64,000 bases of DNA from Orbicella franksi (taxonomy: Eukaryota): positions 4,650,001 through 4,714,000 of the forward strand of contig OZ116707.1 of the NCBI GenBank assembly GCA_964199315.1, in the 5' to 3' direction. Positions 32,301 to 40,250 of the stretch are shown in pieces. The stretch's first letter is position 1. Each line of letters starts with the position of its first letter. Position numbers and translations under genes: made by a program. Under the pieces are notes generated by a model. That model was not told where the DNA came from, ran no database searches, and saw nothing but the letters and a program-made list of their open reading frames with translations.

Positions 32301-34477
32301 TACATCTGGTTGCCAAAACCATGACAAATTACAAAAGGCCACTTACATCACGACTTCACCAGAAGCACGTGTTATATTTACAGCTTTTGAGCATAACAAC
32401 AGTTATAAAACATGCTTCTTATGAGTGACTGCACTTTGAGCCTTGTTTGAAACTACATGTATTCACTACTATTCTATATAAACAACTGCTATAAGTACAC
32501 CCGCCAAAAATCTTTATTTACACAAGGGGTTTGTTTTTGTAAATTCAACTTTAAGTTTTAAGCAATTAAAATTTGAGAATAATCACTCAGCGACCACATC
32601 TGTTTCGATACTTTTTCTCTCGAAATGCTAACCAGGCTTGCATTTTGCGAGCACTGTGTAAATTCTGAACCTTGTGAATAAACGGCATTATAGAGAATAT
32701 GTATTTCTTTGAAAATAGTTAAAACGACTTGTCAACTTTAGTCGGTCTCCAATTTGTTGGGAAACTAGCACACATAAGCCCGGCTAAGATCATCTTTAAA
32801 CTGATAAATATACAATTCGATGAGATGCTTTTAATATCAACTGATATGAGTCTGGTTCGGTCCGTCTGTGAGACAACGTTAATATGTGTAGAGTTGTCAT
32901 AACTCTCGCAGTACAGAGGGTAGCACAATGCAAAATCTAGAACATTTTCGAAGAAGTCAGCAATCTGAATAAAACATTTTACCTGAGCAAAACTGTACCC
33001 CTTGCCATCGAAGTATTTGATCGTGGAACAATTCCTCCTTGTTAAGCACTTGTAGTCTAATCCAAATGTAAAACCCATTTATCGTGCGCCGAACAAAGGA
33101 GGTTACGTTGACAGTGTGCGGGGCACATTGAAAGAATTCAGCTACTGCCAAGAATTCTTCATTTAGTTCGCGTTTTTGCGGGGCTCCCAAAGCAAAAATA
33201 CCAGGTGCAAGTTCACAAGCTCTTTTAGGGGAGTATCTGCTTAAAAGGTCGCAATATAAGTTGTCTGCCTCTACGTGATGAAGGATGTATCTTGTACACA
33301 TTTCTGGTAGCTTTTGTGTGAAGGACACAGCTGATATTTGTCTGTCTATCTACTGTGTCCCATTAATAAATTTCAAAATAAAACCATTCTTATCCTCAAA
33401 ATGAAAACAGCTGTGAGTGAAAAGTGGTCCCAAGTCATGTACATTATCAACTAAGTGCAACAGCTGGTGAATGTTCATAGTAGTGAAATGTGCCGCCTAA
33501 ATGGCGGGAAAACTGGAACAAAAACTAAACAGCAAATTTTTGGCTTCACCGAGATCTGATTCACTTATTGAGTCTTTCAACAACAATTGTATGGCATTTA
33601 CGAGTAGAAGGTAATGCTGAAAGTAGTCTTCAGAAAGAATACCATACAAAGCGGGAGCTCCATAAAACAACAGAAATGAACGTAGTTCACTCGCTTTCCT
33701 GTGTTTTTAAGTGTTCAGATACTGACCTTGGCATTCTCCTTATTTCTTAAGTTGGAAGGATTTCGTTTAGTCGATCATCTAAAACTCCAACTAAGTGCCG
33801 AAAACTGAAGGGCTCTTTAGAATAGGTGTCGCCAAACCACAACTTCAAAAGAAGTTTCTGAACGCCTAATAGAACTCCGTGCATATAGTCTATTCCCATT
33901 CCCACAACAACGTCAAAATTCTCCAGAAATAAAAGCCAGGATGGCCCCTTTACTCCTTTTACTGCATATTGTTTCTGGCCAGATTGAAGGTTCCTCAATG
34001 CTTCATAAGAGTGCTTTGTAGTATCCTGTTTATTTTGCAATGGGCCCTTCGGATTATCCCTTACATACGGAAATATTTTTGTATGGCCTTGAATACCAAT
34101 TTTTTCTGTTCTTCCTTGTTGAAAGCATTTCCAACAGCCATATTCTCCATTAAACTGTAGGCTGTTACACACCAAACACCTGGCAGGAAGATCACAACTC
34201 CCAGCTAGAAGAACAGCTCTACATAAAAACTTGCCTCTTTCTGAAGACTCTACTGTAATACCCTTGTCCATTAACAGAAAACTAAGTTCTTCATACAAGG
34301 GTTTCAGAAAAGTTGCCATAGTGGGCTTTTTGTCCCTGAACCAGCGCCCTGCAAAAATCATGTTTCCTTTTGCCATCCTTTTCTCATACAGTAGTTCATT
34401 GATCACCAGAAATAAAGGCCATATTGAAACTTTTGAAGATTTAGAAACTGGTGCTCCATCCGTATTAAAAAGGAAGG

Positions 34478-34604
34478 TGTTACGATATGTAAATTTCTGT
34501 AGCTGTAATTGTCAGCAGACTTTCTGCCGTACATATAAATTATGTATTTTGAATCGTTAGTTTAGTCTTCTACCGTTAGCTGAGCGAATAAAAGCTTTGA
34601 AACA
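34478..34604 (+). repeat. 5' LTR (127 bp)
   Basis: Starts TGTTA, contains AATAAA, ends GAAACA and is immediately followed by the PBS. Confidence 0.8.
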
Positions 34605-34615
34605 TGGTGTCAGGA
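34605..34615 (+). promoter_or_regulatory. Primer-binding site (TGGTGTCAGGA, compatible with a tRNA-Leu 3' end)
   Basis: TGG-initiated motif directly after the LTR CA; the tRNA identity is from memory of tRNA-Leu 3' ends. Confidence 0.65.
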
Positions 34616-34640
34616 TAAAAAATCGTCGCATAACTACAAG

Positions 34641-35555
34641 ATGTCAGGCGACGAGGGAACTATGGCGACAAATACAACTAATACAGCGTCCATTGGAAGT
34701 GCACAAATGCAGCAAATGTCTTCTTTGCTGAGTGGAATACCAATGCCGAAACCGTTAAATCTTGACAACGTTGCCGCTAACTGGAAAAAATTTAAAAGAG
34801 CCTGGGATAATTACGCCGTAGTTGTGAGGCTCCAGCAGTGCAACGAAGAATATAAGACTGCAACTTTTCTTTCTGTGATCGGTGAAGAAGCTCTTGAAAT
34901 TTATGAAGGTATGACATTTAACCCACCCGAAAGTTCGAAAGTACTCGACTCTGTTGTTCAAAAATTTGAGGAATATTGCATCAGACAAACCAATGAGACC
35001 TTCAAGCGGTATTTATTTAACTCCAGATCACAGAAAGAGGATGAAAGTATTGATCACTATGTATTGGCACTTAGAACACTTGCGAAGTCGTGTAATTTTT
35101 GTCAGTGTTTACATGATTCACTTATATGTGATAGAATAGTGTTTGGCGTTAAAGAGCCTGCCTTGAGAAAGAAGCTGTTGCAAGAAAGACAACTCACTCT
35201 AGAAAAAGCAATCGACATCTGCAAAAGCGGAGAAACAACTGCACAGCATTTAAAGGATCTCGCCACAGCTACAGATCCGAATGAAATACATGCTTTGAAA
35301 CATCGCAACAAAAAAAAACAAGATTACCGGAAGACCCAAGAGATTCAAAGGGTGCCAACAAATGCAAGTACTGTGGAGGAAATCACGTGCTCAAGAGGGA
35401 AAAATGTCCGGCCTATGGAAAGACTCGTGGAAAGTGCGGAAAAAGTAATCACTTCGCTAGAGTGTGTAAGCAGTGTGGACGAAGGAAAAAACCGGTCAAC
35501 ACAGTCTCAGTCTCTTCCAGTGACTCTGGTGAATCACTGTTTACAATTCAATTAA
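34641..35555 (+). CDS. Gypsy Gag-like ORF (frameshifted near the zinc knuckle)
   Basis: NWKKFKRAW, ETFKRYLFNSRSQKEDESIDHY, LICDRIVFG and LTLEKAIDIC motifs typical of Mag-like Gypsy Gag. Confidence 0.8.
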   Translation: MSGDEGTMATNTTNTASIGSAQMQQMSSLLSGIPMPKPLNLDNVAANWKKFKRAWDNYAVVVRLQQCNEEYKTATFLSVIGEEALEIYEGMTFNPPESSKVLDSVVQKFEEYCIRQTNETFKRYLFNSRSQKEDESIDHYVLALRTLAKSCNFCQCLHDSLICDRIVFGVKEPALRKKLLQERQLTLEKAIDICKSGETTAQHLKDLATATDPNEIHALKHRNKKKQDYRKTQEIQRVPTNASTVEEITCSRGKNVRPMERLVESAEKVITSLECVSSVDEGKNRSTQSQSLPVTLVNHCLQFN

Positions 35556-38500: not shown

Positions 38501-38859
38501 AAACATGGAGGAAAGCGAAAGTGCTGAAGCCACTGGGCAGAAGATCGTATGTAGTGGAGTCAAATGGTCAGCTCTATATCAGGAATTGGAGACACCTGAA
38601 ACGTTCTGCAGAGGCTGATAGTGTTCCAGCTGAGGAATGGTCAACGCCTTCAAACCACCATGACTCTAAAGTTAAGGATCACCTCGCCAATGAACAGCTC
38701 ACGCTGAAGCCAGTGGCAACGACGAAAGTTAATCAGTCCACGACCACCACTGAGTCAAATAAGGATCAGCCCTTATCGACCACTTCAGTAGACCAAGATC
38801 AAACCATCAAAGATCAGCCCTTGAGACAACAAGTGTCACCTACAGGGTGTGAAAGCTAA
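35387..38859 (+). pseudogene. Gypsy Pol (protease, RT, RNase H, integrase) with stops and frameshifts
   Basis: FQIDTGA (PR), AIADDIL (RT), QCDASEGGLG and YAQIEKELLA (RH), LHSSHQG..CKTC (IN zinc finger), VDYFSG, VSDSG and SNGKAE (IN core). Confidence 0.9.
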
Positions 38860-39015
38860 GTCCATACCAGAAGTGGGAGACTGGTCAAACAGCCTAGACG
38901 TTATACAGATCATGTAACTCTTAAGGTCTAATGAGTGACATTTTAAGAACTGTTAGCGTATAGAGGAACTGATTCTCTTTTTTTTCTGTTTTTTCACTCC
39001 TTTTTTTTTTCTTTT

Positions 39016-39057
39016 GAGGGAAGGATGTTACGACATGTAAATTTACATATCGTAACA
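39016..39057 (+). other. Polypurine tract followed by a 32-bp palindrome replacing the 3' LTR
   Basis: GAGGGAAGGA (39016-39025), then TGTTACGACATGTAAATTTACATATCGTAACA (39026-39057). Confidence 0.9.
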
Positions 39058-40250
39058 GAAGGAAATGTTATCTCCGCTGCTCAATATACCTTTATTTACG
39101 AGATCTTTGTAAAGTTTCCCATCATAAATGTCCTTGATGTTGGAAGGTTCTTTTTTCTTTCTGTTAAAACGATGCTGTAAGGAAGTGTAGAAACTAGGTC
39201 TTTTAAAAAACATCTGCAACTGTTCTGCAATAGGAAAATAAATAAAGAAGCTACGGGCAACTTTCGGTCTCAAATCTCGGAGGCAGGCAGAGTTAGGACA
39301 AAAAGTGACCTGCTGCTATTTACCGGTGTAAAGCAAAAAGAACAGAAGTAATGAAAATTGACTGGACTGTTAAGATTTCAAAAATAAGCTTTGAAACTCT
39401 TTAGCGTAGATGGCAAGTTGTGATTGGGAGGTAAAGCTAAAGAAAGCAGTGTTAGTAAATGCGCAATGGCTTCCCCAGGCAGATGATATTTAACTGTAAA
39501 CAAAGCTAACAAAGTCATCATAGCAGGAATTGTTAGTTGAGACTTGCCACAAATGGGTTGATCGTCTGTGGATTGACTACTCTCAGGGACTGGTATTGAT
39601 GGAATGGGGAAAGTTTGCAAATGTTCGTCATCGTCAAATTCCTCCAACTCATACATACACTCGTCATCATCATTCAGATCATCATTTTCGGTCAGTAACA
39701 CATTAGCGTGAATTTCATCCCACATGCAATCAGCTGCTTTGGCGTTTTCATAATCTTCAGGTGATTCATTCACGACAGAGTGATCTGCATTCAGCAAACT
39801 GCAAAACAACGATGCGTAAATTTCAGCGTATTCCTCCTCAATAGTTCCGGACCCAAGGAAAGCAGTTTCTTCCAAATCTTCATTGATGACCTCAGCTTGT
39901 GTTTCTAAATTGATGACTGTTTCACAGGCAGTAGGTGTTTGTTTCATCTCATCACCTTTACTTGAAGTTGAAGGACTCGGGGATGATCGAGCAAAGCCGA
40001 CAGTTTTCATGGCTTTGAGGGGCACTGAAACTTCTTTAAATTCCTCCTCCTCGACATTGCTTTCCTTTTGTTGTGGTAAATTGAAACGAATGGAAACTTC
40101 TTGAAATCTATCCTGATTATCAGTGGCATTTTTCTGTCTTTTTGGATTATATTCAGCCATAACATTAACCATTTCCATTCAAATAAACTTTTTGCAGTCA
40201 AACGGTGAGGTAGTTTAATTAAACTAGATACTGAGGCAGCTGCATTAAAT

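Follow-up and report, generated by a model that had tools for sequence, protein, structure and literature searches.

What mends, or miswrites, the end of a retrotransposon such that the tip of its U3 stands at both of its termini, once forwards and once inverted? This question is raised by a decayed Gypsy copy at positions 34478–39057 of the window (the whole 64,000-nucleotide stretch of DNA analysed), which interrupts a CACTA-type transposase and is flanked by an exact 5-bp target-site duplication (TSD). In place of the 3′ LTR stands a 32-bp palindrome built from the U3 tip (39026–39057). Ten independent sister insertions carry two direct LTRs (U3-R-U5), an arrangement absent here, and the window copy is therefore an aberrant member of its family.

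All features of the element are described on the plus strand unless stated. The left TSD copy, GAAGG (34473–34477; the family TSD is 5 bp), is followed by a 5′ LTR of 127 bp (34478–34604; TG...CA, U3 tip at 34478), mostly 89–96% identical to sister LTRs (range 84–96%) and of normal size, as the original prediction had it. A primer binding site (PBS; 34605–34615) of 11 nt complementary to the 3′ end of tRNA-Leu(CAG) precedes a gag-like ORF (34641–35555; PNMA match only sub-threshold, E 0.033), a pol frame with protease motif, RT and RNase H (35285–37228; RVT_1, 1.9e-12; RT_RNaseH_2, 6.8e-26) that terminates at a frame break near 37225, and a frame encoding the RNase H tail and integrase (37222–38859; Integrase_H2C2, 8.6e-19; rve weak, E 0.16), broken by stops at 37531 and 38080. 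The polypurine tract (PPT; 39016–39025), the same tract that stands ahead of sister 3′ LTRs, leads into a 3′ LTR stub comprising the first 19 nt of U3 (39026–39044; one substitution, at 39034) and then, on the minus strand, the inverted U3 tip (39039–39057), which adjoins the right GAAGG (39058–39062). Stub and inverted tip share the self-complementary hexamer AAATTT (39039–39044), the palindrome consisting of 19 nt of U3 and 13 more inverted nt. The earlier description of about 19 nt of 3′ LTR after the PPT, followed by its inverted copy, thus stands, as does the claim that the element ends in the exact reverse complement of its own first 19 nt (34478–34496). One pair of the palindrome is mismatched (palindrome positions 9/24), the left arm carrying a non-family letter at 39034; the mismatch offers no useful dating of the palindrome.

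The insertion interrupts a host CACTA/EnSpm-type transposase on the minus strand, of which the part downstream of the insertion occupies 32937–34477 (Transposase_21, E 6e-8; 88% identical to paralog L049) and the upstream part 39058–40299 (85% identical to L049, where the two are contiguous). This paralog, on contig C3, carries a single GAAGG in an uninterrupted frame reading ...DNISFLFNTDG..., confirming the empty-site frame and, with it, the earlier claims that GAAGG flanks the element on both sides and that one copy restores the transposase frame. Loose ends at 39058 in short-read contigs X3 and X15 were considered as an empty allele of the locus and rejected, as they match L049 instead.

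An assembly artefact, or a family LTR truly ending in an inverted tip, would dissolve the question, and either is so improbable as to be negligible: nothing was found in support, and the artefact is refuted at the right junction, where the join of palindrome, TSD and flank is present in public short-read contigs from three of the four runs examined. Contigs X1, X3 and X17 span this join with at least 31 letters per side, and X15 has 27 on the left; X17 may come from the window DNA's own source. The tabulated sister two-LTR and solo copies all end in U5, of the ...GAAACA type, and not in CATATCGTAACA. The two grounds on which the original prediction might have failed, a collapsed 3′ LTR and a misjudged family end, have accordingly fallen away.

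The element resembles Ty3/Gypsy (Metaviridae-type) retrotransposons in its gag-like ORF, its pol order of RT, RNase H and integrase, its TG...CA LTR, tRNA PBS, PPT and 5-bp TSD, and differs from them in lacking a 3′ R-U5 and in ending, on the right, with an inverted U3 tip. Inverted termini are otherwise found in DIRS elements, which have a tyrosine recombinase and no TSD, and in TIR DNA transposons; the window copy is set apart from both by a Gypsy-type integrase (with zinc finger), a sister-like 5-bp TSD and an end structure present in single copy. A search with the palindrome 32-mer, allowing up to three mismatches, found one locus in 497 Mb and no dispersed copies with the same inverted ends, as a MITE-like or DIRS-like family would have, and a spreading TIR-like subfamily was rejected on this basis; ‘TIR-like ends’, as the element was first characterised, holds as description only. 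A genome pattern search identified no further true U3 tips outside known LTR loci; six unassigned matches to the U3-tip pattern were dismissed, having no LTR sequence after them, with controls giving 4 and 10 chance matches.

The most informative comparison is a sister copy, L050 (G000:C10:25304494-25306770), which as assembled carries U3 at each terminus and is flanked by a perfect TSD, GCTTT. Its order is a full LTR, 18 nt of tRNA complement, and then element positions 1122 down to 1, inverted. The 18-nt tail is the exact complement of the tRNA-Leu(CAG) 3′ end (15/15 with the tRNA gene of this genome, plus CCA), while the remaining 12 of 13 LTR-PBS loci match the tRNA over 11 nt only. Plus-strand strong-stop DNA halts after 18 tRNA nucleotides, at methylated A58. 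A PBS length of ∼18 nt is given in PMC12789967. The join in L050 lies at the hexamer TGGGAT, whose complement occurs at two sites in the 4,580-nt element, and a chance chromosomal join producing this structure is put, by the analyst's estimate, at about 1e-4. Read from its letters, the extra LTR is taken to be plus-strand strong-stop DNA that, by pairing over 6 nt, served as primer for antisense synthesis; the structure of L050 thus indicates that this family undergoes 6-nt-primed antisense synthesis by plus-strand products, together with U3–U3 integration. The window join, like that of L050, rests on a 6-nt match, and U3–U3 insertions account for 2 of the family's 12 two-ended insertions. In a third copy, L061, the change of polarity falls precisely at the PBS; it was considered as a candidate U5–U5 mirror case, but neither the 20 kb upstream of it nor a search of the genome yielded a left LTR or further element sequence.

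For the window copy, the origin that is probably correct is an error of reverse transcription in which a short plus strand, started at the PPT, served in trans as primer for the minus strand by pairing at AAATTT, the resulting cDNA being integrated by two U3 ends. RT would lengthen the PPT primer by up to 19 nt, and removal of the primer by RNase H would leave the exact U3 5′ end; the AAATTT of this fragment would anneal to U3 positions 14–19 of a co-packaged RNA, and the annealed fragment would be extended into a minus strand covering PPT, pol, gag and PBS, replacing the tRNA-primed minus strand. Normal plus-strand strong-stop DNA would then anneal at the PBS, supplying the full 5′ LTR and completing the duplex, whose two U3 ends integrase would insert in a single concerted step. 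Such a product has no 3′ R-U5 and therefore would not copy itself again. The required pieces have precedents: HIV-1 RT pauses at +12 and strips the PPT primer, so that short PPT-free plus fragments exist (PMC3185654), and RSV integrase gives concerted products in vitro from donors with a single U3 end (PMC3579926). At both ends of the element the U3 tip ends in CA beside a TSD of family length. U3–U3 integration after an error of reverse transcription, as originally proposed, remains the best reading and is strongly backed by L050, although the clean TSD alone is no proof of it.

Fold-back, the other part of that proposal together with template switching, fares less well. Priming in cis by a hairpin at AAATTT was rejected, the first 19 nt being predicted to fold into another hairpin with the 3′ end unpaired, and fold-back on the plus strand's second pass would not stop at the U3 tip; cis fold-back is for these two reasons unlikely, and priming in trans fits better. 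The reading by mispriming in trans has difficulties of its own. The ≤19-nt fragment has to detach from its template and anneal through six A–T pairs, and the mispriming species differs from that of L050, where it is full strong-stop DNA. The 12 loci in other families with an 18-nt tRNA-Leu tail show 8 direct LTRs, 1 tandem arrangement and 3 cases with no second LTR within about 9 kb, an inverted second LTR occurring in none of the 12. Letters that only an RT intermediate can supply are present in L050 and absent in the window copy, which lacks the diagnostic tail, and whose sequence is reproduced letter for letter by repair after insertion.

Such repair is the main rival, and one that the original prediction had missed: normal U3/U5 integration would have been followed by a break in the 3′ LTR, or a fork stalled there, mended by snap-back or template-switch synthesis that was primed at AAATTT, copied 13 nt and rejoined at the U5 end through the LTR's terminal inverted repeat, deleting about 95 bp and leaving the TSD intact. 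Six of seven bases, the last four among them, are identical between the family U5 end (CGAAACA) and the inverted U3 tip (CGTAACA), which is why the clean TSD does not by itself establish U3–U3 integration here. The junction has the features used to assign SD-MMEJ, primer and microhomology repeats included (a repeat motif of at least 4 bp at most 30 bp from the join; PMC5728401), and yeast breaks acquire fold-back inversions of 5–34 bp captured by 0–5 bp of microhomology (PMC11724301). Ordinary deletions are frequent in this region of sister LTRs, and in the 3′ LTRs of L029/L030 and L032 they begin close to this point of U3, so that the region is prone to other kinds of damage as well; inverted filler of more than 4 nt was, however, found in none of the 16 same-polarity sister deletion junctions by the analyst's count, which speaks for reverse transcription. 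How special a TSD-clean join would be under repair depends on the rule applied: it is 1 of 18–57 possible joins at 4-nt microhomology, 1 of 3–17 at 6-of-7 matching when a sister LTR substitutes for the missing one, and only 1 of 3 candidates under the strictest rule; when the element's own 5′ LTR is the substitute, the join does not pass the 6-of-7 rule. An allele of this insertion retaining its full 3′ LTR appeared in none of the 4 runs examined (20 contain part of the stretch), a weak point against later repair given at most eight haplotypes and contigs that drop rare variants. Repair offers no account of the tRNA tail of L050, and is on balance unlikely. A composite of two plain LTR deletions (involving positions 1–19, ACATAT at 54 and the U5 end) with one substitution was set aside, as it takes three events against one.

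A further possibility is that one integrase complex joined the U3 ends of two cDNAs, the host then uniting the free ends by AAATTT microhomology after trimming one to 13–19 nt. In vitro, integrase can carry out same-end concerted integration with two donor molecules (PMC3579926), and the scheme accounts for both the TSD and the 6-nt overlap, but the two cDNAs would have to be trimmed unequally, one losing about 4.5 kb and keeping just its last 19 nt, the other losing only about 108 nt; the joins of L050 and L061, which coincide exactly with ends of RT intermediates, are not predicted; and host-repaired HIV ends usually show long duplications or deletions instead of a 5-bp repeat (PMC5041404). 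This course of events is very improbable.

Among the known systems compared, complex LTR-retrotransposon insertions formed by RT template switching, with two parents fused and sharing an LTR (Sabot and Schulman 2007, PMC1950507), are likewise aberrant RT products integrated as one unit, whereas the window copy switches polarity and is bounded by U3 on each side. Some HTLV-1 proviruses had already lost the 5′ LTR when they integrated, a defect dated by the normal-length target repeat (PMC6950816); they similarly combine a defective cDNA and abnormal end with such a repeat, the abnormal end being internal sequence in HTLV-1 and a second att site in the window copy. The RSV U3-only donors (PMC3579926) show that two U3 ends suffice for concerted integration, but in vitro, with two donor molecules and enhanced U3, where the window copy is a natural germ-line insertion. 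SD-MMEJ and fold-back inversions (PMC5728401, PMC11724301) share with it a deletion, a short inverted templated insertion and microhomology, but are host repair after insertion and give no reason for tRNA letters or for joins at RT-intermediate ends. In the literature searched, no paper on natural U3–U3 insertions with a TSD was found, most subscription papers being outside its reach.

The window copy is a dead-end copying fossil, not a new or self-copying element. LTR finders seek direct LTRs, and such copies would probably be missed or filed as TIR elements. If mispriming in trans is the true origin, a Gypsy integrase needs no U3–U5 pair in vivo, ≤19 bp of U3 acts as an att site, and the minus strand can be started from plus-strand intermediates. 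It is tentatively suggested, with the balance still somewhat against it, that where the PBS of a Gypsy family falls short of the tRNA stretch copied by RT, the second strand transfer may often fail and plus-strand products may become minus-strand primers, the U3–U3 cDNA integrating in vivo at a high rate (2/12); the window copy would be the limiting case, in which a PPT-primed oligonucleotide of ≤19 nt replaced the tRNA primer and 13–19 bp of U3 sufficed as the second att site of a full-length cDNA. The window copy, L050 and L061 form a countable series tied to the short PBS, and the prediction across genomes is that polarity-switch insertions would be commoner in short-PBS families.

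The Gypsy element at 34478-39057 (4,580 bp) is flanked on each side by GAAGG and interrupts a minus-strand Transposase_21 host gene; a 127-bp 5' LTR, from 34478, is followed by the PBS and by an internal region in Gypsy order (gag-like frame, RT, RNase H, integrase zinc finger), in which the frame breaks near 37225 and stop codons fall at 37531 and 38080. Only 32 bp stand behind the purine tract, made up of 19 nt of U3, altered by a single substitution (39034), plus an inverted U3 tip of 19 nt, the two sharing an AAATTT overlap; as the original prediction held, the inverted tip reverse-complements the opening of the element without a mismatch. 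The target-site duplication (TSD) and restored host frame that it described are borne out by a paralogous transposase on contig C3 (L049), with a single GAAGG and the frame ISFLFNTDG open. The window copy is a real, single, dead insertion, and probably the outcome of a variant of a copying error of known kind. Elsewhere in the window, long stop-free frames lie at 51154-54178 and 28383-29393 (both minus) and 3906-5414 (plus), and two of equal length (223 aa; 11201-11872 and 60074-60745, both plus) may be repeats.

Parts of the window are present in 20 public runs from 9 studies, whose labels point to a coral, and contigs of four runs, one each from four studies, were placed on 39026-39220. The full 3' LTR envisaged as a sign of assembly collapse did not appear in these contigs; instead, those of X1, X3 and X17 (the last possibly from the same source as the assembled DNA) span the join of palindrome and TSD, extending at least 31 letters to either side, an X15 contig has 27 letters on its left, and U5 sequence was not found in any loose end of the four runs across this interval. 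Loose ends at 39058 (X3, X15) were considered as an empty allele and rejected, their letters being those of the C3 paralog. A genome search with the 32-mer of the palindrome, allowing up to three mismatches, recovered this locus and no second one in 497 Mb.

Searches with the LTR, 3' region, integrase region, PBS-gag start and U3 tips gathered a small family whose members differ from the window copy by 4.0-5.5%; among them, 10 independent insertions are of ordinary build, bounded by direct LTRs with U3...U5 ends and a TSD of 5 bp (the duplicated segment L054/L055 counted once; L056 carries one extra T), the remaining loci including four solo LTRs and two one-ended copies (L061, L062). The window copy lacks two direct LTRs; it derives from this ordinary Gypsy family, and a TIR or DIRS identity was rejected. 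U3 stands at both ends in 2/12 independent two-ended insertions, the window copy and L050. Since the U5 ends of sisters are CGAAACA, or differ from it by one letter, the family LTR does not naturally end in the inverted tip, contrary to the alternative raised beforehand. An overlooked likeness between this U5 end and the inverted tip CGTAACA (6/7 bases) makes repair of a normally inserted copy possible. Within the family, L004/L005 and L029/L030 (G000:C4, 12.68 and 12.95 Mb) are one insertion duplicated together with its flanks, both 3' LTRs sharing a 45-bp deletion absent from the 5' LTRs, and LTR length variants of 126-152 bp (L006-L010, L016-L027) stem from a short duplication directly behind the U3 tip.

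The second such member, L050 (G000:C10:25304494-25306770; L050:1995-4271), has inverted full LTRs and the TSD GCTTT on both sides, in the order forward LTR, inverted element positions 1122->1, second full LTR; a 1-kb unrelated insert (2594-3612), without clear TSD, lies in the inverted part. Its LTRs differ at six sites and one gap (sister pairs, 0-9 differences). The 18 nt behind the forward LTR complement the 3' end of tRNA-Leu(CAG), matching the genome's own tRNA gene at 15/15 positions plus CCA, whereas the match is only 11 nt long at the other 12/13 LTR-PBS loci. Since synthesis of plus-strand strong-stop DNA runs 18 nt into the primer tRNA, this tail is the scar to be expected of such DNA priming on a plus-sense template. 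Its final six letters are also the start of the inverted segment; the complement of the join hexamer, TGGGAT, occurs twice in the 4,580-nt element, and a chromosomal origin of the join by chance is estimated at ~2/4580 x 1/4, roughly 1e-4.

By analogy with L050, the window copy probably arose by a reverse-transcription error. A plus-strand fragment would start at the PPT and shed its RNA primer, its AAATTT end would anneal to the U3 on a plus-sense template, to be extended as minus strand, and normal strong-stop DNA would then contribute the full 5' LTR at the PBS, yielding a cDNA with two PPT-defined U3 ends. Short PPT-free plus fragments are known, since HIV-1 RT pauses at +12 and there cuts the PPT away (PMC3185654), and concerted integration in vitro works with U3-only donors (PMC3579926). 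Of the fold-back or template switch originally proposed, reverse-transcription error stands as the best reading; fold-back in cis is less likely, because the first 19 nt fold into another structure with the 3' end left free and AAATTT leaves no space for a loop. Counting against a reverse-transcription origin, a diagnostic tail is missing from the window copy itself, deletions occur near the same U3 spot in sister 3' LTRs, and inverted LTRs were found at 0/12 loci of other tRNA-Leu-primed families. Integration of the U3 ends of two cDNAs is highly improbable.

Snap-back repair of a normally inserted copy predicts identical letters, and the junction agrees with SD-MMEJ criteria in the literature (PMC5728401, PMC11724301); such repair is nevertheless an unlikely origin. 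Given AAATTT priming, 18-57 distinct joins are possible with 4-nt microhomology, one of them TSD-clean; under 6-of-7 matching the clean join is one of 3-17 when a sister LTR stands in, and none of 2-10 is clean when the element's own 5' LTR does. Inverted filler above 4 nt is present at 0/16 same-polarity deletion junctions in sister copies, a count that leaves out large inserts and overlaps due to the two LTR length variants.

Polarity switches occur in two further sisters. In one-ended L061 (L061:3708-7677; G000:C7:14383707-14387676), inverted positions 3059->128 adjoin the 3' part with its LTR, and the switch falls precisely where the PBS begins (CACCA match); the copy's left end was not found within 20 kb, and it would otherwise be the U5-U5 mirror case. 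L051 (L051:1264-5971; G000:C7 near 18.60 Mb; TSD ACCTA) has an internal inversion with duplicated borders; its two internal switches lie between normal ends and are not diagnostic. In another Gypsy family, the very young insertion L102 (L102:1419-5706; G000:C9:23638918-23643205; TSD TCCTT; normal outer ends) contains three identical units of LTR, 18-nt tRNA-Leu tail and antisense integrase-end sequence, joined through the hexamer TGGGAT as in L050. Some 40 nt of tRNA-Leu complement, well beyond 18, stand behind LTRs at L169 (G000:C4 near 14689329), followed by a repeated LTR fragment and shorter PBS, and at L173 (G000:C10 near 3086513), which runs into other sequence with the direct 3' LTR ~4 kb further; both are likely read-through strong-stop scars. 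A tRNA-Leu(CAG) gene cluster at G000:C1 25.55-25.57 Mb was confirmed by ARAGORN, which called none in the tandem tRNA-Leu-like repeats at C3 31.2-31.4 Mb; C10 26.16 Mb is a further locus among these gene and repeat clusters.

Related published cases are complexes from RT template switching (PMC1950507), HTLV-1 proviruses with an LTR lost before integration (PMC6950816) and host-repaired HIV ends (PMC5041404), with PMC6894440 and PMC8487063 as background; a search covering little of the subscription literature brought up no publication that describes U3-U3 insertions in nature with a TSD. The value of the window copy lies in its family series together with its very short second end.
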